Below are positions 11,658-24,437 of a DNA stretch of 64,000 nt, piece after piece. Source of the stretch: Candidatus Latescibacterota bacterium (lineage in GTDB: Bacteria; Latescibacterota; UBA2968; GCA-2709665); assembly GCA_963662665.2 (NCBI GenBank), contig CAXXJS010000040.1, positions 365,574-429,573 on the forward strand, given 5' to 3'. The position numbers and the translations under genes are program-made. The notes below the pieces were generated by a model that saw only the letters and a list, made by a program, of their open reading frames with translations, was not told where the DNA came from and searched no databases. Within the stretch, counting starts at the first letter, position 1. The number at the start of each line of letters is the position of its first letter.

Positions 11658-12422
11658 ATGGCAGGAATGACGCTATCCGTCAATTTGGAGGAATTGAAAC
11701 CGGTTTCCAGGGAAACCCTGGCAGACCAGGTTGTAACAATTCTCAGACGATACATTCTGGTTGAAAAGCTGAAAAGAGGCGACAGGCTTCCGCCCGAACG
11801 GATCCTGGCCGCCAATCTGGGCGTCAGCTACCGGGTCATCCGCGAGGCGCTGGCCGTGCTCGTCGGCAAAGGCACCATATCAAGAAAGCAGGGGCGCGGC
11901 ACATTTGTCAGAAACGTGGACACCGGCCATATCCAGAGCGGCCATCTCGATTTGTTTCCATCCATCTCCAGCCGCGCGGACATATACGCGTTGCGCGTTT
12001 CCGTCGAGATGGCGGCGGCCGGTATGGCGGCCGAGAATGCGACGGACAAAGACCTCGCGCATCTCAACGACATTGCCGACTTCAATGCGTCGGACCGCGA
12101 CCAGGGGATGATGGCGTATGAAATCCGCTTTCATCGCGCTCTGTTGCGGGCAACGCATAACCCCACGCTGCAGCGGTTTGCCGACCTGATTGCCGAGGCA
12201 TTGCGCCTCAAGGCATACGACATAAATATCCCGGTTTTCGGTGAGCGGCCGGCTGCCCAGAGTTCCGGCAGGGTCGCTATTTCGGAACATCGGCACATCG
12301 TCGATGCGCTTACGGAACGAGACGGCGCGAAGGCAACGGCAATCATGTACAAACAAATGGCCAGCGTCCGCACGCTGATCCACGCCCTGCAGGGAAAAAA
12401 CGGTCACACGGACCATCAATAG
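11658..12422 (+). CDS. GntR family (FadR subfamily) transcriptional regulator
   Basis: LKRGDRLPPERILAANLGVSYRVIREAL wHTH; FCD domain (FHRALLRATHN, EHRHIVDAL). Confidence 0.92.
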   Translation: MAGMTLSVNLEELKPVSRETLADQVVTILRRYILVEKLKRGDRLPPERILAANLGVSYRVIREALAVLVGKGTISRKQGRGTFVRNVDTGHIQSGHLDLFPSISSRADIYALRVSVEMAAAGMAAENATDKDLAHLNDIADFNASDRDQGMMAYEIRFHRALLRATHNPTLQRFADLIAEALRLKAYDINIPVFGERPAAQSSGRVAISEHRHIVDALTERDGAKATAIMYKQMASVRTLIHALQGKNGHTDHQ

Positions 12423-12528
12423 AACGCCAGGAATCCGAAAATACGCATTGACTACGGATAACCATACATAAGGAGGTGATGCGCCGGGAATATTGACGGT
12501 ACGTTTAACAATAAGGCACCGGAGTGTC

Positions 12529-12550
12529 CGGATGTCGTTCGTGACATCTG
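12529..12550. promoter_or_regulatory. Palindromic candidate operator upstream of the outer-membrane operon
   Basis: CGGATGTC-gttcgt-GACATCTG just before the SD of 12572. Confidence 0.5.
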
Positions 12551-12571
12551 AATAATGTAAGGAGGTTGTAT

Positions 12572-13288
12572 ATGCGTAACGGTGTGTTGGTATGTATGGC
12601 AGCGGCATTGCTGTTGCTCTCGGCGGGAACGGTCTACGGCGGCGGTGTGGCCGGAAGTTGGGGCCTGGGTACGTTCCTGGATTACAACCGGTCCATCTTC
12701 AAGCTGAAGAACTGGTATGAAACCGGCCGGGGGCAGGCCGGCGTGGTGTTCACCTACGTGATGGGTCCGCGGACCAGCGTGGAAATGGAATTTCACCGCT
12801 CCATATTCGAGAACGGAGCACTCGAAGACACCCCGTTTACCTGGCCCATAGACGGCAGGGACTATACGTCACCCAACGCCGTTAGCGAGATGCGTATCAG
12901 CAGCTTTCTCGTAAACGCGGTGGTCAGACGCGGGAACAGGGGCATCCTGGTCAAAGAAAGCTATTCCACCTACGTGACCGTCGGCGCGGGATTCTACGAC
13001 TACAAGACGGACGTAAGCGGCCTGATCTTTCCGGGGCAGCGCGAAGCCCCTATAGACAAAGAGCTGGTGATCGAGCCGTTCAGCGATTCGCGCACGGCGC
13101 TGGGCGCCAACGTGGGTGTGGGCGTGGAGGCGTTTGTGTTCGATAACATTTCGCTGGACGTGCGCGCGCGGTACAATCTCCTGCTGGGCGAGTTGAGGCC
13201 CATGGAAGCGTGGGGCCTCGAGGGCCAGACCTTTCCAATGCAGTTCGTGAACGCGCGCGGAGGCATCCGGTTTTACTTCAAGAAATAG
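12572..13288 (+). CDS. Outer-membrane beta-barrel protein (OmpA-like transmembrane barrel)
   Basis: Signal peptide, alternating strands (YVTVGAGFY, LGANVGVGVE), C-terminal GGIRFYF; TAAGGAGG RBS. Confidence 0.8.
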   Translation: MRNGVLVCMAAALLLLSAGTVYGGGVAGSWGLGTFLDYNRSIFKLKNWYETGRGQAGVVFTYVMGPRTSVEMEFHRSIFENGALEDTPFTWPIDGRDYTSPNAVSEMRISSFLVNAVVRRGNRGILVKESYSTYVTVGAGFYDYKTDVSGLIFPGQREAPIDKELVIEPFSDSRTALGANVGVGVEAFVFDNISLDVRARYNLLLGELRPMEAWGLEGQTFPMQFVNARGGIRFYFKK

Positions 13289-13366
13289 CGATGAAGGCGT
13301 GAAGGCTTGTTGGATCTCGGTTGGAATGTCTTGCAAGTGTAACAAACGCCGCCAAAAGGAGGAACC

Positions 13367-16300
13367 ATGAGCAGGCTCAGGTTTTTGACGGGCGCTTCGG
13401 TCGTGTTGATTGCCGTGTGCTTTGCCGCCAGCACGGTCATGGCAGCGACAACCGGCAAAATCGTCGGTCGCGTGACCGACGAGAAGGGGGAACCCCTGCC
13501 GGGGGCGAGCGTGGCGATAGAGGAAGCCCGGCTGGGTGGTACCACCGATGCCGACGGATTCTACGTGATCGTCTCGGTAACGCCCGGCCAGTACAAGCTA
13601 ACGGCATCGATGGTGGGGTTTCACTCGGTAGTCCAGGAACAGGTGGGCGTACGGGTGGACTTCACCACAACGGTCAACTTTCAACTTCGTGAAACCGAAT
13701 TGGAACTGGAAGATATGGTGGTGGTCGCCGAGAGACCGCCGGTCGATCCCGACAAGACGGACAGCCGTTACGTCGTGACCGCCGAGGAGATCGAGCGAAC
13801 GCCCATTCTGAGAAATGTCACCGAGGTCCTGGAGCTTGAGCCGGGCTATGCCGTTGACGGCAGCGGCGCGATCCGGGGTTGGGTGGCAAGCCACAACGTC
13901 GTCTACGTCGACGGCGTACCCGTTTCCGGCAGGGACGGGCGCGGCATCGGCGGCGGATGGGGCGACGGCGGCGAGAGACAGTGGTACGGCGTCAACCTCA
14001 AGGCGGTGCAGGAGGTCTCGGTCATCACGGGCGGTATGAACGCCGAGTACGGAAACGCGCAGGCCGGCGTCATCCAGATTGTAACGCGCGACGGCGGCGC
14101 GCAATATCACGGCGAGGCGGAGTATCGTCTCACCCCTGCCGGAAAGAAACACTGGGGCGCGAACGCCTACGAAGCGCCGGAACTGCGCGGAAACGCGAGG
14201 TGGAACGACCCGTCCTGGACGTCCGAGGTGGACCCGGAGACGGGTAATCTGGTCCACCCGCGTACGAATTATACGGACTGGCGGGGTCACTACCTGGATG
14301 GGTTTCTGAGCGGCCCGTTGTTCGGGAACTCGTCATTCTTCGCCAGCGCCCGGCACCTGCGTGACGCCGCCGTGCTTCCCGGCCCGTGGCGAACCCGGCC
14401 GGCGAACCTGAGGACCACGGCAAAGCTGACGGTCCCGGCGGGGTCGAACATGAAGCTGCGGATCGGATGGATGTACGACTTCGCGGAAGGCATCAACAAC
14501 GGACGGCTGTCCAGGTACAGCTTCCCGAACGTACTCCGGGGACCGGGACGCGACCTCTTCATTCCCGATGGTTCGGTCGCGGGCGAGGAAAAGCAGACGG
14601 ACAACATGATCTATGGCGTGATCACCCATACCATCAGCCCCCGCACGTTCTACGAAGTGAGCGTATCGCGCTACGGAAGCCGAACGGACACCAGCGGCGT
14701 GGGGAATAAAACCACGGCCGTCAGGACCGACAGCGAAGGGTATTTCTACATCGGCCGGGAAGACGTCTGGGCATTCAAGGTCGGCGAACAGAACCGTTTC
14801 AGCCTGAAGGCCGACCTGTCCAGCCAGATGACCCGGGGCCACTTCGCCAAGACCGGCTTTGATTTCATGACGTTCGAGAACTGGTGGACCTGGACCGGCA
14901 TGACGCCCGGTGACGCGAAGCGGGATATTCGCTACATCGGACAGCCCGAACCCGGCGAGGCCGTGACGCCCAGGCAGTTCGGCGCCTACGTCCAGGACAA
15001 GATGGAGTTCGAGGGGCTGATCGTCAACGTCGGCCTGCGCTACGACCGCTTGTGGGGTCAGGACGTACAGCTGCTGCCGTCGTTCACGTCGGGCTGGTAC
15101 AACGCGATGGATACGTTCATCCAGGCGCCCACGGGGCCCATGCGGACCATTCAGGGTTGGAGCCCCAGGTTGGGTATCTCACACCCCATCACGGCCAGGT
15201 CCAGCATGCATTTCTTTTACGGCCGATACATGATGATCCCCTCCTTCCGGCAACAGTTCGGCAGCCACTGGGAGACGGCTTCAGGACCGCAGGGCATTCC
15301 GGGCGTCCCGTGGAGTCATTTCAACGCGAAAGACGAAAGCTACGGCGCCAACGTCATCAGCCCGGTCTGGGACCACGGTCACCCCACGAACAGTTTCGAA
15401 GTGGGCACAGACTGGAACTTCGTAAGCGATTATGTCTTCTCTCTGGCGGCGTTCTACAAGAGCGGCCACCTGCAGAGTACCGGCATCTGGCACGACGCCG
15501 TCGATCCTGTCACGGGCAGGACGGGCGCCATCGGGGGCACGTACGGTTCCGAGCGCACGGAAGACGTCAAGGGGTTCGAGTTCAGTATGAGGAAGGGCTT
15601 CAGCAACTATTTCGCATTCCGCGCCGCCATGAACCTGGAGTGGCTGGAAGCCATCCACTGGCTGGGCGACCTCGAGTCGGTTGCCAGCGTCCTGGTCTAT
15701 CCGGACCGGAGTTTCATCGCCAGCGGCAAGTACCACAAGGAATGGCGCGCCGCGGGCGGTCGACGGGAACCTGTTCCGCTTACCGCCAGCGAGATCCAGG
15801 CGCTTGGCGACAAGGCGGAAGAGAACCTGCAAACGGTCCGGGATAATCCTGAGGCCTTTCTCACCAGCGGCGGCGCCGGACCGGTTCAGCCGGCGTGGGA
15901 AGTCGAGGGGCTGACGGACGAAGCGAGGCAATATCTTCAGGGCATCTGGTTTCAGAAGCTCTGGTTCAGTACCGGCAATATCTTCACGCGCGGGCGCCGC
16001 AGCCAGGGCAGTCTTCAGATGTTCTTCTCCACCCCGCTCGACTTCGGTCCGGGCGCAAGGTACGCGGGCGTCACGCTGTTTGGCGGCATCAACGCCAACC
16101 TGATCTACCGGATCTACACGGGCAGCAAGTTCAATTACATCAAGCTGACCGGAGCCAACACGCCGACGAGAGGGCCGTTGCATACGGAAGCCGACCTGAA
16201 CCTGCAGAAGCACTTCCGCTTCGGGAATCTGAACGCCGATGTGTTCGTGGAAGTGTTCAACCTCTTCAACCAGCAGGACGCGGCGAGCGTCACCGGTACG

Positions 16301-16435
16301 GACTACATGTGGTGGGGGCTCCAGCAGCCCAGGCCCGACGACGCGACTTACCTCAATTACGGGGACGTTTCAGACCGATCCCGCTACATAGGCAATCCCC
16401 GGATTACGCACGTGGGAATCAGGTTGAGCTTCTGA
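13367..16435 (+). CDS. TonB-dependent outer-membrane transporter with N-terminal carboxypeptidase-regulatory-like domain
   Basis: Signal peptide, TTGKIVGRVTD..GEPLPGASV, plug motif ITGGMNAEYGNAQAGVIQIVT, QDKMEF, SPRLGISHPI, C-terminal NPRITHVGIRLSF. Confidence 0.92.
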   Translation: MSRLRFLTGASVVLIAVCFAASTVMAATTGKIVGRVTDEKGEPLPGASVAIEEARLGGTTDADGFYVIVSVTPGQYKLTASMVGFHSVVQEQVGVRVDFTTTVNFQLRETELELEDMVVVAERPPVDPDKTDSRYVVTAEEIERTPILRNVTEVLELEPGYAVDGSGAIRGWVASHNVVYVDGVPVSGRDGRGIGGGWGDGGERQWYGVNLKAVQEVSVITGGMNAEYGNAQAGVIQIVTRDGGAQYHGEAEYRLTPAGKKHWGANAYEAPELRGNARWNDPSWTSEVDPETGNLVHPRTNYTDWRGHYLDGFLSGPLFGNSSFFASARHLRDAAVLPGPWRTRPANLRTTAKLTVPAGSNMKLRIGWMYDFAEGINNGRLSRYSFPNVLRGPGRDLFIPDGSVAGEEKQTDNMIYGVITHTISPRTFYEVSVSRYGSRTDTSGVGNKTTAVRTDSEGYFYIGREDVWAFKVGEQNRFSLKADLSSQMTRGHFAKTGFDFMTFENWWTWTGMTPGDAKRDIRYIGQPEPGEAVTPRQFGAYVQDKMEFEGLIVNVGLRYDRLWGQDVQLLPSFTSGWYNAMDTFIQAPTGPMRTIQGWSPRLGISHPITARSSMHFFYGRYMMIPSFRQQFGSHWETASGPQGIPGVPWSHFNAKDESYGANVISPVWDHGHPTNSFEVGTDWNFVSDYVFSLAAFYKSGHLQSTGIWHDAVDPVTGRTGAIGGTYGSERTEDVKGFEFSMRKGFSNYFAFRAAMNLEWLEAIHWLGDLESVASVLVYPDRSFIASGKYHKEWRAAGGRREPVPLTASEIQALGDKAEENLQTVRDNPEAFLTSGGAGPVQPAWEVEGLTDEARQYLQGIWFQKLWFSTGNIFTRGRRSQGSLQMFFSTPLDFGPGARYAGVTLFGGINANLIYRIYTGSKFNYIKLTGANTPTRGPLHTEADLNLQKHFRFGNLNADVFVEVFNLFNQQDAASVTGTDYMWWGLQQPRPDDATYLNYGDVSDRSRYIGNPRITHVGIRLSF

Positions 16436-16446
16436 CGTGGGTGAGC

Positions 16447-16464
16447 CCCTCCGGAGACGGAGGG
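16447..16464 (+). promoter_or_regulatory. Intercistronic stem-loop with GNRA tetraloop, possible mRNA stabiliser
   Basis: CCCTCCG-GAGA-CGGAGGG with no adjacent U-tract. Confidence 0.45.
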
Positions 16465-16498
16465 ACAGAACCCCGTTGGCATCTTTGAGGAGATTAAG

Positions 16499-18778
16499 GT
16501 GATGAAAAAGACAATGTTACGGACGATCGCACTCCTGGTCATGTCCCAGGTGTTCGTGAGCGCCGGAAATGCGGAACTCCGGGTCCAGTCCCGCGCGAAG
16601 GTGTGGGATATTTACTGGAACTCGGGCACCCAGGGGGTGCGCGCCGCTACGCCCATGAGCTGGTACCGACCCGTGGGTATGTCCTATCCCGGCAGGTTCT
16701 GGGTGCAGTTCCCCCAGGAATTCGTGGATTACTGGGGCACCCGGCGCTGGGGCGTCCGGTCCGAGTGGGTGGTCTACTACAACGAATTATGCGGCACCAT
16801 GCCCGGCTGGAACCAGTTCATCGCGACGAGAGTCGGCGGCGAGTACCACGTTTCCGAATCCAAGGCCACGCTTGAATCCGAGGACGTGGTGCCGATGGCG
16901 TACGATCCTTCGCAGGGGCCGGAGAGCAATATCGGTTACCGGAAGGTATCGCCCCTCGGCCCCGTCATGGCCAACTGGTGGGCGGGCCAGCCCGCGCCGG
17001 GGCCCGGTTCGCCGGTGGAAATCCACAACTACCGGTACAGCGAATATATGGAGGCCGACAAGGACAATTTTCCGGAGAGCATAATCGTCAGCAAATGGAC
17101 CACGAAGAACGGCATCACGGTAACCAAGAAGTCTTACGCATGGAGCTATCCGGATTTCGACGACTTCCAGATTATGGAATATACGTTCGAGAACACCGGA
17201 GACTCCGACGGTGACGGCGTGGCGGACCTCGGCGGCGGCGGGCTGCAGCTGAACGATACGTTTCTGATTTTCTCCACCCGCTTCTACACCTCCCAGTGCG
17301 GCCAGGCCCACTATGCCGGGGATTCGTTCTTCCGGCGCACAATCCCGATCTCACTGGACGATTGGTACAAGTATACGGAAGCGGCCAACTTCGACGGGCC
17401 GGGCGATGCGTTGGGGCTCAAGATGTGGTACGCCTTCGACGGGGAGAATCCCGATCTGCCGGGAAACGACATCGGCAAACCGTATAGCGAGGAACGTGCG
17501 AACTCGAGCTGGCACCAATGCTGTCTCAAGCAGACGAAGATTGAGGGCGAGATGGGGGCCTTCCAGTACATCGGCGCCGCCCCGCTGGCATATACCCCCG
17601 GGTCGGTCAACGATGCCTCGACCTTTACGTTCGACACCGGCGGAGACGCGAGTTTCGTGGCGCCCCGGGTAGCGGATCAGCCCCACACGGTAAAATGGTG
17701 GGACTACCGGGACCGCACCGATTTTTCGGAACCCGGTTCCGAGAACAAGAGTTCGGAGCAAATCTACAACGAACTGACCAGTCCCGCGCCATCCATCATG
17801 GACAATCCCACCACGGTAGACGGGCTCACCGCTTCCTTCGCCTATGGGCCGTACGACCTGGCCCCCGGCGACAAGGTGAGAATTGTCTACGCTCTGGTGG
17901 CGGCCGCGCCGGTGGAGGAGAATATCTGGGGCTGGGCCAAACAGAGCCGGCAGGAAGATATGCTGTCAGACAAACCCATGAACAACCTGCTGAAACACCA
18001 TAAGGCCGCCACCGACGCCTTCAGGTGGAACTACGACCTGCCCGATCCCCCACCTGACGTCAAGACAGAAACCGCTGCGTCGGTCGACGGATTCAACCTG
18101 ATCAAGTGGACCGATGCAGGCGACGACGCGACCGACCCGGACTACACGGGCGCCGAGGCGCAGGATATCGTGGGCTACCGGGTCTACCGCTCGGACTATA
18201 AAATCGACGACTGGAAGCTGATGGCCGATGTTCCGCTGAAGGACCCGGAATACTATAGCGGCGGCACCTACCAGGTTGAAGACAGGAGGTCCGTTGCGGG
18301 TTTCGAGTACACCTATCGGGTGGCCGCCTACGACTCAGGCCACGACGACTGGAACGGGACCGGGATGTCCATTCCCTCCATGGAGGGCGGCAACAGCGCG
18401 CCCGAGCAGTGGGCGGGCGGCGTAATGACCAGCGTTCCCTTCGTGCCGGCCAACGCTTCGGCGGACCAGTTGGCGCGGGACGTGATCGTCGTCCCCAATC
18501 CGCATAAAGTGGACGGGGCCCACAACTACCCATCCGCGGGTCTGATACGGTTCACCAATATCCCGCAAAAGTGCACGATCCGGATCTACACCGTGGCAGG
18601 CGAGCTTGCCGCCTTAATTAATCACAACGATCCCGCCCGGGGCGAAGCCGGATGGGACCAGATCCCCCATTCGCGCGGCGGGGACGTGCCCGCCGGCGTC
18701 TACTACTGGATCGTCGAATCCCAGATGCCTGGGAGCGCGGGCCAGACACAGCGGGGCACGTTGATGATTATCAAGTAG
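16499..18778 (+). CDS. Secreted protein with FN3 domain and T9SS-like C-terminal sorting domain
   Basis: Sec signal peptide without lipobox; PDPPP...GYRVYRS...YTYRVAAYD (FN3); C-terminal VIVVPNP...IRFTNIP..CTIRIYTVAGEL...GVYYWIV...GTLMIIK. Confidence 0.75.
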   Translation: MMKKTMLRTIALLVMSQVFVSAGNAELRVQSRAKVWDIYWNSGTQGVRAATPMSWYRPVGMSYPGRFWVQFPQEFVDYWGTRRWGVRSEWVVYYNELCGTMPGWNQFIATRVGGEYHVSESKATLESEDVVPMAYDPSQGPESNIGYRKVSPLGPVMANWWAGQPAPGPGSPVEIHNYRYSEYMEADKDNFPESIIVSKWTTKNGITVTKKSYAWSYPDFDDFQIMEYTFENTGDSDGDGVADLGGGGLQLNDTFLIFSTRFYTSQCGQAHYAGDSFFRRTIPISLDDWYKYTEAANFDGPGDALGLKMWYAFDGENPDLPGNDIGKPYSEERANSSWHQCCLKQTKIEGEMGAFQYIGAAPLAYTPGSVNDASTFTFDTGGDASFVAPRVADQPHTVKWWDYRDRTDFSEPGSENKSSEQIYNELTSPAPSIMDNPTTVDGLTASFAYGPYDLAPGDKVRIVYALVAAAPVEENIWGWAKQSRQEDMLSDKPMNNLLKHHKAATDAFRWNYDLPDPPPDVKTETAASVDGFNLIKWTDAGDDATDPDYTGAEAQDIVGYRVYRSDYKIDDWKLMADVPLKDPEYYSGGTYQVEDRRSVAGFEYTYRVAAYDSGHDDWNGTGMSIPSMEGGNSAPEQWAGGVMTSVPFVPANASADQLARDVIVVPNPHKVDGAHNYPSAGLIRFTNIPQKCTIRIYTVAGELAALINHNDPARGEAGWDQIPHSRGGDVPAGVYYWIVESQMPGSAGQTQRGTLMIIK

Positions 18779-18837
18779 GGGCAGATCTCTATTTCTTTTC
18801 GGCTCAGGTCCATACTGAAACTTAAGGAGATGAAGCG

Positions 18838-19791
18838 ATGAAACGGACGTTGTGGATCGGACTGACAGTGGCGGTGATCTGCGCCCTGCTCTACCCGCGG
18901 GGGACAGATGCCCAGGACCAGCGGCGATTGTCGCGGATGGTCCTCCCTGTTCTGAAGATCGATCACGGGGCGCGAATGGCAGGTATGGGCGGTGCGTTTG
19001 TGGCCGTATCGGACAATATCGACGCCATCTTTTCGAATCCTGCGGGCCTCACGCATATCGAACGTGCCGCGTTTACGCTCGGTTACACCCGGTGGCTGAT
19101 GAGCGACTACATCCTTACGGGTGGGATGGCCTACAACACGGCGTACGGCGTTCTGGGCGTTAACGTGGTCACGTTCACCCCCAAGGCATTCGAAGAGACA
19201 ACTATTTTTCAGCCCACGGGGACGGGTCGCGAACCGGATATGGGTGATCTCTCGCTGGGGGTGGTCTACGCCAGAAAACTGACGGACAAACTCTCCGTCG
19301 GCTCAATGTTCCGCTGGACGCAACAAACACTCGATACAGACCGGCTGAATGCGTGGGACGTGGGCGTATCCACGTATTTCTACACCGGTTTCAGGAGCCT
19401 GCGTCTGGGCATGACCTTCGAGAATATGGGCAAGGACGTCAAGGTGATCGATGACGTCAGAAAAATGCCGGTTGCCTTCAGCACGGCCGCGGCAATGGAA
19501 ATTGTCGGCGCCACCGGCGACCCGACGTATATGACGGTAACCTTCGAAAACACGTACGCCACGGATTTCGCGGATCCGCAGTACCGGTTCGGCGGCGAAC
19601 TCTGGCTTCAGAACAGCTTTGCCCTCCGGGCGGGCTATAAGGCAAACTTCGACGAAGAGTCCTGGACGGTCGGGGCGGGGTTGAAATTCTCGATGCCGAA
19701 CGGACGGGTCGTGCAGGCCGACGTCGCGTACAGCGATTTCGGCGTGTACCTGGATGCCCCATTGCGGTTCACGCTTAGCGGCGCGTTCTGA
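18838..19791 (+). CDS. PorV/PorQ family outer-membrane beta-barrel
   Basis: LKIDHGARMAGMGGAFVAVSDNIDAIFSNPAGL plug motif; ALRAGY; DVAYSDFG; terminal Phe. Confidence 0.85.
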   Translation: MKRTLWIGLTVAVICALLYPRGTDAQDQRRLSRMVLPVLKIDHGARMAGMGGAFVAVSDNIDAIFSNPAGLTHIERAAFTLGYTRWLMSDYILTGGMAYNTAYGVLGVNVVTFTPKAFEETTIFQPTGTGREPDMGDLSLGVVYARKLTDKLSVGSMFRWTQQTLDTDRLNAWDVGVSTYFYTGFRSLRLGMTFENMGKDVKVIDDVRKMPVAFSTAAAMEIVGATGDPTYMTVTFENTYATDFADPQYRFGGELWLQNSFALRAGYKANFDEESWTVGAGLKFSMPNGRVVQADVAYSDFGVYLDAPLRFTLSGAF

Positions 19792-19815
19792 GTCTTCAGG
19801 AAGAGTCGTCTGTAA

Positions 19816-19852
19816 GAGAAATGGCGGTCCTCAGGGATTGCCATTTCTTTTT
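19816..19852 (+). terminator. Rho-independent terminator closing the outer-membrane operon
   Basis: GAAATGGCGGTCC-TCAG-GGATTGCCATTTC followed by TTTTT. Confidence 0.7.
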
Positions 19853-19867
19853 AGGTGCCGGATTTCG

Positions 19868-22424: not shown

Positions 22425-24437
22425 GTGGAAGGCTCTCAAGCCCGAAGCCGGTGGAATCGGACCGACCCGCAACAACGCGCGTCTTCGGAGCATCAACCTG
22501 CGTCTTCCCGGGACGGTCTCACGTTGCGGGCTTTCCTTATCGGACTCGGACTTTGCGTGTTTCTCGGTGTCGCGCTGACGCACAACCGGATGGTCGTCCA
22601 GGGGCCCTTCATGGGCAATTACTTTATGGACCGGGGCGTACTGTTCGTCTTCTTTGTCCTCGTTCTGGCCGTAAACCCCCTGGCGGGGGCCCTGAAGCGC
22701 CGGTTTGCGCTGGGGCGAGGCGAGTTGCTGGCCATCTACGTCATGTTGCTGTTTCTGATGCCGTCGTGGAAAATCACCAAGGCCCTGCTGGGCTTCATGA
22801 CCGGCGTGACCTACTATGCCTCGCCGGAAATGCGGCACCTGGAAGCGGTGTTGCCCTATGCCCTTCCGTGGCTGTCGATCCTGGATACGGGAGCCGTACG
22901 GGGGCTGTACGACGGCCTTCCCGCCGGCGACCCGGTGCCCTGGTGGACGTGGGTGGTTCCCATGTGGAGCTGGGGGTCGTTCCTGGTCGTACTCTACGTC
23001 GTGCTCGTCTGCCTGGCCGTCCTGATGAGAAAGCAGTGGGAAGAGCACGAACGGTTTGCGTTTCCCATCATGCAGGTCCCGCTCGAGATGAGCGAGGCGG
23101 GGGCGCGAAAGGTGGGACCCCTGTTCCGCAACAGGATGATGTGGGCAGGGTTCGCGGTTCCATTTCTGATCGGATTGTTGAACGGGCTTCAGAGGTACTA
23201 TTACTCTCTTCCCCGGATTCACCTGCGAACCGTGATCTGGATCTTCCGCCGGGCGATTCCCTTGCACATCGGTCTTCATTTCGCCATCCTTGGGTACTCG
23301 TATTTCGTGAATACGGACGTGAGCCTGAGCATCTGGCTGTTCAACGTCATCGCAAAATGCATCAGCGGAATTCTGGCCATCGTAGGGGCGGAAACTTACG
23401 GCGTTTCCGGCGTGGTGGGCCGGCACAGTTCGCAGGGATCGGAATTGCTGGCGATGATGGGCATGGGCTATATGCTCGGCCTGGCGGGGTACAGTCTGTG
23501 GATCGCGCGGGGGCACCTGCGTGAGGTCTGGGCCAGCGCGATGGGCCGACCGTCGCGCCTGGACGACTCGGAAGAGGTCATCCCCTATCGATCCGCGGTG
23601 GCCGGCATTGTTGCGGGAACGCTCTATCTCGGATGCTGGCTCTACCAGGCGGGCATCTCTCCTCATCTCGTCCTGCTGCTGGGCTTTTTCTGCTTTGTCG
23701 TCTTTCTGGTGCTCGCCCGGATCGTGAGCGAGACCGGATATTCCGTCACCTATTCCCCACTGAACCCGTCCGAGTTCGTGGTGTGCGCGGTGGGATCAGC
23801 GGCGTTCGGACCAACGGGGTTGACTTCTCTCGGCGTCAGTTTCGCCTGGACGATGACCCGGTTGAATACGCTGATGCCGAGGGCCTCGGGCGCGCTGCGG
23901 CTCGCACGTGAGATCGGGCGCAAGCGGGGGCTGGTGGTGGCGATGGGCGCCGCGCTGGCCGCCGGCCTGATCGCCGCGAGTTATATGACGCTTCAACTGG
24001 GGTACGAACACGGCGGCCGCAACCTGGACTACTGGTTCCGGGACGTGAACGACTGTGCGCTGCCGTTCGACGAATACATCGGTCGCAGGCTGCTCTCACC
24101 CTCGCCGATCTTCTATCCCGGATTTCTTTATACGGCGCTGGGCGCGGCCGTTGTCGTCGCTCTGATGTCGCTCCGGTCGCGGCTCCCGTGGTGGCCGCTG
24201 CACCCGGTGGCGCTGCCGGTGAGCACAATCGCCTATACGCACAACTACTTTTTCAGCGTGTTTCTCGCATGGGGAATCAAAGCGCTCGTGCTGAAGTTTG
24301 GAGGCGCCAATCTTTACAGGATGACGCGGCCGTTCTTCATGGGAATTATCCTCGGTGAGGCGGTCTGCCTGGGGATGTGGATCGTTATCGACAGCATCAC
24401 CGGCAAAGTGGGCGGGATCTGGATCCTGCAACCGTGA
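22425..24437 (+). CDS. DUF6785/DUF6784-type polytopic membrane protein, putative transporter
   Basis: Many TM segments; GLTLRAFLIG, RKQWEEHERFAFPI, WWPLHPV, RPFFMGIILGE. Confidence 0.7.
   Translation: MEGSQARSRWNRTDPQQRASSEHQPASSRDGLTLRAFLIGLGLCVFLGVALTHNRMVVQGPFMGNYFMDRGVLFVFFVLVLAVNPLAGALKRRFALGRGELLAIYVMLLFLMPSWKITKALLGFMTGVTYYASPEMRHLEAVLPYALPWLSILDTGAVRGLYDGLPAGDPVPWWTWVVPMWSWGSFLVVLYVVLVCLAVLMRKQWEEHERFAFPIMQVPLEMSEAGARKVGPLFRNRMMWAGFAVPFLIGLLNGLQRYYYSLPRIHLRTVIWIFRRAIPLHIGLHFAILGYSYFVNTDVSLSIWLFNVIAKCISGILAIVGAETYGVSGVVGRHSSQGSELLAMMGMGYMLGLAGYSLWIARGHLREVWASAMGRPSRLDDSEEVIPYRSAVAGIVAGTLYLGCWLYQAGISPHLVLLLGFFCFVVFLVLARIVSETGYSVTYSPLNPSEFVVCAVGSAAFGPTGLTSLGVSFAWTMTRLNTLMPRASGALRLAREIGRKRGLVVAMGAALAAGLIAASYMTLQLGYEHGGRNLDYWFRDVNDCALPFDEYIGRRLLSPSPIFYPGFLYTALGAAVVVALMSLRSRLPWWPLHPVALPVSTIAYTHNYFFSVFLAWGIKALVLKFGGANLYRMTRPFFMGIILGEAVCLGMWIVIDSITGKVGGIWILQP

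Follow-up and report, generated by a model that had tools for sequence, protein, structure and literature searches.

The window analysed here, a stretch of 64,000 nucleotides (positions 365574-429573 of contig C40, accession CAXXJS010000040.1) from the genome of a Candidatus Latescibacterota bacterium (4.86 Mb in 66 contigs, 92% complete), contains at 12572-19791, on the forward strand, a cassette of four genes that encode, in this order, a small outer-membrane β-barrel, a TonB-dependent transporter (TBDT), a secreted protein named here protein 3, and an outer-membrane barrel of the PorV family. Protein 3 ends in a C-terminal domain (CTD) related to those of type IX secretion system (T9SS) substrates. 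This cassette is real, widespread and so far undescribed, and it is made of known parts. What is new is that a pair formed by a CTD protein and a PorV-family barrel is coupled to a TBDT and a small barrel, as a conserved operon that has been multiplied outside the Bacteroidota. An earlier account of this DNA, drawn up from its letters only (the sequence-only reading), had listed these four genes and a preceding regulator gene, and all five are present on the forward strand (Table 1).

As for its function, we lean towards the notion that the conserved unit is a modular outer-membrane nutrient-uptake cassette, in which protein 3 would be the surface substrate-binding component, held through its CTD on a private PorV-family barrel beside the TBDT. 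By analogy, protein 3 is likely to act in the role of SusD and the surface glycan-binding lipoproteins of Bacteroidota, in a genome devoid of SusD. The SusC/SusD system, which depends on surface lipoproteins, is the textbook example of surface polymer capture in Bacteroidota. Sediments, oceans and sponges harbour Latescibacterota and Marinimicrobia as abundant, mostly uncultured degraders, the uptake machinery of which is, to our knowledge, not known. In the literature searched, with supplements and subscription journals outside its scope, no description of a PorV/TonB cassette was found, for Latescibacteria and Marinimicrobia included.

A multiplied cassette of near-invariant gene order

The notion that the four genes form a unit derives from their recurrence. 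A tblastn search with the four proteins recovered the cassette six times in the host genome, on contigs C40 (twice), C43, C25, C26 and C57. A small barrel could not be detected in one of the six (its paralogues being found in four of the other five cassettes), and another contains an additional gene. Outside this genome, a scan of one genome per species yielded 234 stretches encoding relatives of protein 3, from which 79 distinct loci, with identities ranging from 30 to 94%, were kept. A TBDT homologue was found directly upstream of protein 3, on the same strand and less than 600 nt away, in 70 of the 72 loci that had space for one; directly downstream, a homologue of the PorV family followed in 76 of 77, and a small-barrel homologue was present upstream of the TBDT in 56 of 69. 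These 79 loci are not independent, since many of them are orthologues. The existence of six paralogous cassettes, together with the near-invariant synteny elsewhere, places the arrangement far beyond chance.

The three large genes also diverged together. The 78 cassettes containing all three were reduced to 29 representatives with less than 85% identity in protein 3, and the matrices of pairwise distances obtained for protein 3, for the barrel and for the TBDT were found to correlate with r = 0.91-0.92, a value as high being reached in none of 2000 permutations. By these distances, the nearest neighbour was the same cassette in 21-24 of the 29 representatives. Because the three genes co-diverge, the cassette must have been inherited and duplicated as a unit; as kinship alone yields such correlations, this result documents unit inheritance, not physical contact.

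Most of the 79 loci come from records titled Latescibacterota. The other titles correspond to KSB1 (one locus), Marinimicrobia/Neomarinimicrobiota (six), a single metagenome-assembled genome (MAG) named 'Gemmatimonas sp.' (four), a MAG named 'Cytophagia' (one) and unnamed bacteria (five), so that the prediction that the gene set would occur in other lineages of the FCB group (Fibrobacterota, Chlorobiota, Bacteroidota and relatives) was borne out by KSB1, Marinimicrobia and these further titles. Protein 3 was detected in 55 of the 151 sampled genomes of the phylum, in a distribution that follows families (18 of 18 and 27 of 30 genomes in two of them, one of 64 in a third), and with up to at least seven copies per genome, seven being the most that was scored for any one genome. 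If the uptake function is correct, the cassette would be a marker for substrate-uptake loci in these phyla, with at least five to seven copies per genome in two families and about a third of the TBDTs of the present genome belonging to it.

Two observations on individual copies and records can be added. The extra gene mentioned above (L001:14118-14780, reverse strand, corresponding to C40:82117-82782) encodes a secreted protein of 220 residues, in which Ca-binding motifs of the Temptin_C, EF-hand and dockerin types occur, and it lies between the small barrel and the TBDT of that paralogous cassette. Separately, public MAGs titled 'Gemmatimonadota' (the 'RHO' bins; loci L011, L016, L019, L021, L023, L029, L054, L060, L078 and L086) contain cassettes 90-94% identical to those in records titled Latescibacterota; given this identity under both titles, the two taxonomic assignments cannot both be right.

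Protein 3 and the adjacent PorV-family barrel

Protein 3 has a signal peptide without a cysteine (that is, without a lipobox) and hence is not a lipoprotein. Its mature form is rich in aromatic residues, with 3.5% Trp and 5.9% Tyr compared to 1.48% and 2.85% in the long open reading frames of the genome. No Pfam family was matched above its cut-off. Homologues bearing any name are 'hypothetical' proteins throughout, and precomputed Pfam domains are absent from all homologues; a profile search retrieved 4600 cluster representatives at E ≤1e-3, and the neighbours in the Atlas are unnamed clusters from Fidelibacterota, Zixibacteria and Gemmatimonadota. Should the proposed function hold, a large protein family so far known under 'hypothetical' names only, with 202 cluster representatives at E ≤1e-30, would be defined. 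An AlphaFold2 model based on a 68-sequence alignment (pLDDT 90.8, pTM 0.90) shows three domains: a galactose-mutarotase-like supersandwich, an FN3-type domain and the CTD. The second of these is backed by a match of the family profile, at positions 520-609, to 3mpc_A ('Fn3-like protein', E 2.7e-5) and by the presence of FN3 entries among the Foldseek matches. Thus, the sequence-only description of a non-lipidated, Trp/Tyr-rich protein with an FN3 domain proved accurate.

The nature of the first domain deserves closer attention. When the full-length model was compared with the PDB using Foldseek, only partial matches of low TM (~0.2) were obtained, and the fold was recognised only by VIA-align. 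The best match was 1lf6_A, the N-domain of a glucoamylase (Z 18.0, root-mean-square deviation 3.3, 241 residues aligned), followed by cellodextrin and cellobiose phosphorylases (5nz7_A, Z 17.9, and 2cqs_A, Z 17.3) and a glucodextranase (1ulv_A, Z 17.4). These top matches are the non-catalytic N-terminal domains of enzymes of glycoside hydrolase (GH) families GH15, GH94, GH65 and GH116, whereas aldose epimerases and a GH174 fucanase scored lower (Z 11-13.5). Neither an (α/α)6 nor any other catalytic domain is found in the model. The conserved positions of the supersandwich are mainly Gly, Pro and Asp (D221, D222, D287, D314, D324 and D372), in addition to N232 and Q394.

These features are relevant to the alternative in which protein 3, displayed at the surface, represents an enzyme family not yet described (a glycoside hydrolase, lyase or epimerase-like protein) and would cut the polymer beside the transporter while the rest of the cassette works as proposed above. 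Indeed, the supersandwich is catalytic in aldose 1-epimerases (3os7_A, Z 13.4; 3mwx_A, Z 13.1), the GH174 fucanase 9k1g_B is matched over 238 residues, the Asp residues just listed and E227 show a conservation of 75% or more among the 68 sequences, and only ~240-290 positions of this domain of about 500 residues align to known folds, so that its large insertions could form an active site. However, the matches with Z 17-18 are all to non-catalytic domains, and no CAZyme (carbohydrate-active enzyme) or other enzyme family was matched by sequence in Pfam, NCBIfam or the sequences of the PDB. Moreover, besides these Asp residues, no polar residue of the domain other than N232 and Q394 is conserved at 90% or more among the 68 sequences, with no His or Lys conserved at 75% or more, and the Asp-rich motifs ENTGDxDGD and DGDxP are presumably Ca-binding loops. 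A recognisable stand-alone enzyme, which would have spoken against the sequence-only reading, therefore did not emerge, these matches being to supersandwiches of the non-catalytic N-domain type, and we regard an enzymatic protein 3 as unlikely.

The evidence for the CTD came from profile-profile comparison. The genome encodes, elsewhere, 16 canonical type-A CTD proteins recognised by TIGR04183; protein 3 does not match this model at E 0.1 or better, and the 16 do not include any of the six cassette proteins. In spite of this, alignment of the C-terminal columns of the protein 3 family with the 16 CTDs by hhalign gave a probability of 96% (E 3.8e-9, 82 columns, reaching the last residues), compared to 0.8% for a control with the FN3 columns, and on this basis protein 3 is considered to bear a divergent type-A-like CTD, in keeping with the T9SS-like CTD claimed earlier. 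The domain stands at the extreme C-terminus and contains the PNP, GxY and terminal basic-hydrophobic motifs. It also resembles the C-terminus of PorZ (NF052228, E 4.6e-4; PDB entry 5m11_A, E 0.0015), and its match to the type-B model CHU_C is weak (E 0.023).

The barrel encoded immediately downstream matches the PorV_fam model NF033709 along residues 35-314 (148.2 bits, cut-off 90), and its family profile matches PorV of Flavobacterium johnsoniae (6h3i_F, E 1.4e-21), but it falls short of the equivalog models for PorV (NF033710, 58.7 vs. 250 bits) and PorQ (NF033711, 52 vs. 220 bits). Nine PorV_fam genes score above the cut-off in the genome, six of them being the cassette genes. The other three are, by best score, PorV-like (153.5 bits), PorQ-like and PorV2-like, all under the equivalog cut-offs. 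In a tree of 34 sequences rooted at the midpoint, the barrels of the cassettes group together in a single clade (support 0.82) that leaves out these three, which fits the dedicated PorV paralog of the sequence-only reading. From the gene counts and this clade it follows that six divergent CTDs pair with six private barrels and 16 canonical CTDs with three shared ones. It may be mentioned that the most PorV-like of the three, on contig C5, is followed by a relative of the 'T9SS-dependent M6-like inactivated metalloprotease' (327 bits vs. a cut-off of 600) with a weak CTD, which makes another adjacent pair of barrel and CTD protein (C5:52657-57172, or L006:5658-10173).

The possible association of both proteins was modelled using residues 25-317 of the barrel (31-row alignment) and the FN3 and CTD portion of protein 3 (residues 515-759, 68 rows). 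Three runs gave ipSAE values of 0.91, 0.90 and 0.91, the best of three controls reaching 0.26; in calibration, 58 of 80 solved complexes attained the mark applied, compared to 2 of 110 mismatched pairs. The pLDDT of the partners was at least 72, and contacts agreed between runs by at least 81%. On the protein 3 side, the interface consists almost wholly of residues 663-759, plus 599-600; on the barrel side, it involves periodically spaced loop segments, in which W86 is nearly invariant and T122, P126 and G128 are invariant. The model thus supports binding of the CTD to the adjacent barrel, the interface that the sequence-only reading had foreseen.

Whether such binding would be lasting is a different matter, as the complex model speaks for binding only and not for permanence. 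Accordingly, it could be proposed that the barrel is a dedicated but transient secretion shuttle and that a C25/PorU-like sortase removes the CTD, protein 3 being then released or attached to lipid or lipopolysaccharide, with no stable complex with either the barrel or the TBDT. Cargo with a type-A CTD is described as being shuttled transiently by PorV (PMC5562754), type-B CTDs are described as having specialised cognate shuttles (PMC12618676), and the genome does encode a C25 protease that has its own CTD. However, one-to-one pairing of barrel and cargo maintained through at least six duplications and across phyla would be costly for a transient step, a step that the housekeeping PorV-like protein encoded on contig C5 could perform for the 16 canonical CTDs. 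In addition, the protein whose CTD resembles that of protein 3, PorZ, is retained. We consider a mere shuttle rather improbable, and retention on the barrel, the option preferred here, would widen the role of the PorV family from T9SS shuttle to permanent anchor of nutrient-binding proteins.

Transporter, export route and proposed mode of action

The TBDT has a Plug domain at residues 131-234 (PF07715, 45.8 bits vs. a cut-off of 23.9) but matched no Pfam barrel model (Oar-type or TonB_dep_Rec) at E 0.1 or better. Its fold was confirmed with an AlphaFold2 model (pLDDT 76.1), for which Foldseek returned PfeA, FoxA, FepA and SusC chains with E values from 1e-20 to 9e-24 and probability 1.00; PfeA (E 8.9e-24) and the SusC chain 8aa0_A (2.7e-22) ranked alike. 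By eye, a candidate TonB box, DMVVVAE, can be proposed at about residues 116-122, within a low-confidence linker. The protein fails the SusC/RagA model TIGR04056 (62.8 bits vs. a cut-off of 368.25, the match being confined to residues 31-283), and cassette TBDTs account for five of the 18 Plug-domain matches above cut-off in the genome. The small barrel, which most likely starts at the ATG at 12572, preceded by AGGAGG, scores 31.4 bits against PF13505 (OMP_b-brl; cut-off 28.7), a family also borne by its look-alikes in the Atlas.

The gene that follows the TBDT encodes, according to the AlphaFold2 model, an all-β protein and not a SusD. In agreement with this, the genome, which is 92% complete, yielded no match to the SusD families PF07980 and PF14322 at E ≤0.01 under conditions in which a Bacteroides thetaiotaomicron control was positive, so the earlier designation of the system as SusD-less holds for both the unit and the genome.

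The sequence-only reading relied on a T9SS core in this genome, and this expectation stood only in part. A SprA-like translocon gene is present (TIGR04189, 630.6 bits summed vs. a cut-off of 200; SprA_N, 102 bits), and so is a C25/PorU-like protease of 1916 residues with Peptidase_C25 (253 bits) and Propeptide_C25 domains and a FlgD_ig-type CTD, which reaches 222.1 bits in the PorU model NF033707 (cut-off 420). In contrast, GldK scored at most 122 bits (cut-off 350), in FGE-sulfatase-type proteins, and GldL, GldM and GldN had no match in the genome, although their models never matched in any control either and hence say little about absence. GldM likewise did not exceed its cut-off in any of 31 relatives (many of them single-contig), five other genomes with cassettes or 26 genomes of the phylum to which genome G153 belongs, again with no positive control. 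As a lead at most, the T9SS of this organism may be one that lacks the known motor. The best GldK scores of the genome (122 and 93 bits vs. 350) belong to two tandem FGE-sulfatase/EgtB-type proteins (L003:6035-7830, reverse strand, or C25:64034-65829 in contig numbering) directly downstream of the PorV-family gene of one paralogous cassette, cassette D; they were considered as PorK and rejected, being of that protein type and far under the cut-off.

Based on these findings, the following mode of action can be proposed. Protein 3 would be exported by Sec, as its signal peptide without lipobox indicates, and would then cross the outer membrane via the SprA-type translocon, using as secretion signal its divergent type-A CTD, whose homology to such domains is established. 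The adjacent PorV-family barrel would capture it, as the complex model suggests, and the uncleaved CTD would retain it at the surface, in the manner of PorZ on PorQ and PorU on PorV. There, the aromatic-rich supersandwich and the FN3 domain would bind a polymer or oligomer, most likely a glycan in the case of this copy. Finally, the substrate would be handed to the co-encoded TBDT, a step suggested by the invariant gene order, co-duplication and co-divergence.

A last alternative, that the cassette is not an importer and the TBDT takes part in export or in assembly at the surface, or that a surface layer or a structure for adhesion is built by the cassette, is in our opinion highly improbable: a TonB-dependent barrel, Oar, has reportedly been implicated in export, that of PopC, in Myxococcus, other energy sources for moving CTD proteins are conceivable with GldL, GldM and GldN undetected here and GldM in relatives too, and several copies lie beside large TPR, He_PIG/dockerin and FG-GAP proteins instead of catabolic enzymes, but the plug and barrel of the TBDT are ordinary and importer-like, no Oar-type family was matched, a SprA-like translocon is present, and this copy stands among catabolic genes behind a sugar-acid-type regulator.

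Several points weigh against the uptake function as formulated above. The contact between protein 3 and the TBDT (the 'lid') is, at this stage, hypothetical. With respect to the docking model, structures of PorV (6h3i, 8gl6 and others), a part of which are listed alongside further T9SS entries, are already available, so the high complex score may reflect family likeness; furthermore, it is the most conserved motifs of both partners that make up the interface, which fits generic and cognate binding alike, and the model is therefore silent on a preference for the cognate over the housekeeping barrel. The conserved Asp residues of the supersandwich and the existence of enzymes with the same fold (aldose epimerases; GH174 9k1g_B, Z 13.5) mean that a catalytic role must be granted some probability. 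The failure to detect GldL, GldM and GldN, albeit without positive control, brings into question the export route of CTD proteins in this organism, and if the cassette functions as proposed, the question of their export in the absence of a detectable GldKLMN motor becomes sharper. The RNA-library contigs described below denote presence in RNA libraries and are no proof of transcription or operon structure. Lastly, other copies are flanked by TPR, FG-GAP/ASPIC, M24 peptidase and ceramidase-like proteins and not by CAZymes, some of them lying beside He_PIG/dockerin or CTD proteins, and for this reason 'glycan' cannot be generalised as the substrate. Different copies probably deal with different classes of substrate, not necessarily glycans, and the earlier idea that the system feeds the surrounding enzymes found no support, since TPR, peptidase and FG-GAP genes take the place of CAZymes beside the other copies.

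Compared with known systems, the closest precedent for the anchoring step, by analogy, is that of PorZ on PorQ and PorU on PorV. In Porphyromonas gingivalis, PorZ is held at the cell surface by PorQ and PorU by PorV (PMC5562754), and cognate PorV-like barrels have been proposed to shield CTDs from cleavage (PMC10202324). As in these pairs, which are described as retaining their CTD (PMC5562754, PMC10202324), the cassette combines a Sec- and T9SS-type protein having a type-A-like CTD, one that matches the CTD of PorZ, with a PorV-family barrel. Unlike them, the cassette pair is encoded by adjacent genes, has been multiplied at least six-fold per genome and lies in an operon with a TBDT and a small barrel. 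The passenger is also different, consisting of a supersandwich and FN3 instead of a β-propeller carrying A-LPS (anionic lipopolysaccharide) or a sortase, the hosts are not Bacteroidota and the barrel stays below the PorV and PorQ equivalog cut-offs. A second precedent comes from type-B CTD proteins, whose genes are linked to those of their own shuttle barrels in a pair-specific manner (PMC12618676). SprB/SprF of F. johnsoniae, with its PorP/SprF-like barrel, shares with the cassette the linkage of a CTD cargo gene to its own barrel gene; in contrast, the CTD is here type-A-like, the barrel belongs to the PorV/PorQ and not the PorP/SprF family, and the pair is linked to a TBDT.

The likeness to SusC/SusD (RagA/RagB) lies in a TBDT followed by a candidate surface substrate-binding protein, in the many paralogous copies per genome, in the N-terminal CarboxypepD_reg-type extension of the TBDT and in the location of this copy amid catabolic genes behind a local regulator. 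However, the partner is an all-β protein with a CTD and a dedicated anchoring barrel, with neither the SusD fold nor a lipoprotein, and the TBDT, apart from failing the SusC/RagA model, is no closer in fold to SusC than to siderophore receptors. With regard to the passenger, residues 25-522 of protein 3 superpose on the N-domains of GH15 glucoamylase, GH94 and GH65/GH116 (Z 17-18, ~240-290 residues), but the identity is 8-13%, the (α/α)6 domain of those enzymes is missing, and the domain has large insertions and is followed by FN3 and the CTD.

In a broader and more tentative version, which we would not at present favour, FCB phyla outside the Bacteroidota (Latescibacterota, Marinimicrobia/Fidelibacterota, KSB1 and others) would have built SusCD-like 'utilisomes' from T9SS parts. 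Each TBDT would have as its substrate-capturing partner a CTD protein, not a lipoprotein, lodged for good in a PorV-type barrel of its own, and the small barrel would be the fourth subunit; in the lineages searched, a SprA-type translocon is seen but a GldKLMN motor is not recognised. If so, PorV-family barrels would be a general 'socket' for the display of surface proteins, and there would be a second, independent solution for attaching a binding protein above a TBDT.

Flanking elements and genomic surroundings

The coordinates of the cassette, its flanking elements and other genes mentioned in this work are collected in Table 1.

Table 1. Location of the features described; positions refer to the window unless a contig (C) or locus (L) is given.
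Feature	Position	Strand	Basis or remarks
GntR/FCD (FadR-subfamily type) transcriptional regulator	11658-12422	+	PF00392 and PF07729 matches
Short inverted repeat GGATGTC N6 GACATC in the cassette leader, ~20 nt 5' of the ribosome-binding site	12529-12550	+	Read from sequence
Small outer-membrane β-barrel, 238 aa, first cassette gene	12572-13288	+	PF13505
TBDT, 1022 aa, N-terminal CarboxypepD_reg	13367-16435	+	CarboxypepD_reg 71.5 bits, Plug 45.8 bits
Protein 3, secreted, non-lipidated	16502-18778	+	758 aa from ATG 16502; 759 aa from GTG 16499
Galactose-mutarotase-like supersandwich with large insertions, aromatic-rich, conserved Asp-rich loops	16571-18064	+	Residues 25-522; VIA-align
FN3-type domain	18065-18334	+	Residues 523-612; profile match and strands in model
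Divergent T9SS type-A-like CTD, predicted docking surface	18476-18775	+	Residues 660-759; hhalign
PorV/PorQ-family outer-membrane barrel, 317 aa, cassette-specific clade	18838-19791	+	NF033709
Terminator-like hairpin and subsequent T-run at the end of the unit	19814-19856	+	17-nt arms 19814-19830/19835-19851, 82% complementary, 4-nt loop
SprA-like gene, 2104-2121-aa frame, adjoining lptF/lptG	C34:21589-27903 (L088:9590-15904)	-	TIGR04189, SprA_N
TPR-repeat protein	L001:4245-7013	-
TPR-repeat protein	L001:15794-17665	+
TPR-repeat protein	L003:674-3142	-
TPR-repeat protein	L005:3038-5011	-
TPR-repeat protein	L005:13299-15806	-

The regulator combines an N-terminal GntR winged helix-turn-helix (PF00392, 59.4 bits, cut-off 27) with a C-terminal FCD domain (PF07729, 74.8 bits, cut-off 24.3), and its closest NCBIfam models are NanR, LldR and PdhR, each of them matched far under its own cut-off. 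It probably controls the expression of this copy of the cassette. As a homologue of the regulator occurs upstream in only four of the 79 related loci, this gene and the leader stem are considered local additions outside the conserved unit.

The leader stem, of 6-8 bp, had been presented as a palindromic operator. A short stem does exist and is kept in relatives, its arms being retained in locus L010 and partly so, as a G-U-compatible intermediate, in L013. Moreover, a relative found in an RNA-library contig (run X17) has GGATGCC N6 GGCATC, in which both arms are altered in a compensatory way, and this hints, at the level of sequence, at an RNA hairpin instead of, or besides, a protein operator. 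On the other hand, this is the weakest element of the locus, its RNA fold energy being no better than that of shuffles (z -0.79), so that operator and RNA stem are left side by side. The terminator claimed to close the unit was found as a hairpin and T-run after the last gene. RNA-library contigs of a relative stop at 19798/19799 in two runs of one study, a weak hint only in favour of termination at this point, and a scan for sigma-70 promoters and terminators gave a signal at the level of shuffled sequences and missed the real hairpin.

The RNA-library evidence comes from two studies, and the runs contain only small shares of the sequence words compared. Two metatranscriptome libraries from one study contain a relative ~92% identical, as a contig spanning 12962-19799 (6835 nt) or as two contigs, 12962-18806 and 18844-19798. 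Two poly(A) libraries from another study contain small pieces, seven per run, of which 10 of 14 are at least 95% identical. Bins not covered by these contigs, 12154-12430 among them, carry no information.

The neighbours of this copy point to catabolism of the sugar type and include a pair of GFO/IDH/MocA oxidoreductases, an FG-GAP/RGL11-like protein, GHL10, an amidohydrolase, a xylose-isomerase-like TIM barrel, a GH130-like protein, a DUF4838 protein with GH67N, BNR_2, two PhyH dioxygenases, Ldh_2 and a DUF6785/DUF6784 membrane protein. The last of these, of 670 residues (22425-24437, forward strand; 356 and 93 bits, respectively), is encoded 2.6 kb downstream of the cassette in the midst of GH130-like and PhyH genes and is a candidate for the inner-membrane transporter of the cassette substrate.

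Concerning the surroundings of the other copies, the large TPR-repeat proteins listed in Table 1, of 624-923 residues, are neighbours of three of the other five cassettes, and in two cases they stand on both sides. Finally, a DDE transposase (DDE_Tnp_1_4, 110.6 bits; L005:17359-18735, reverse strand, or C57:49358-50734) is encoded about 4.6 kb from the cassette on contig C57 (cassette F).

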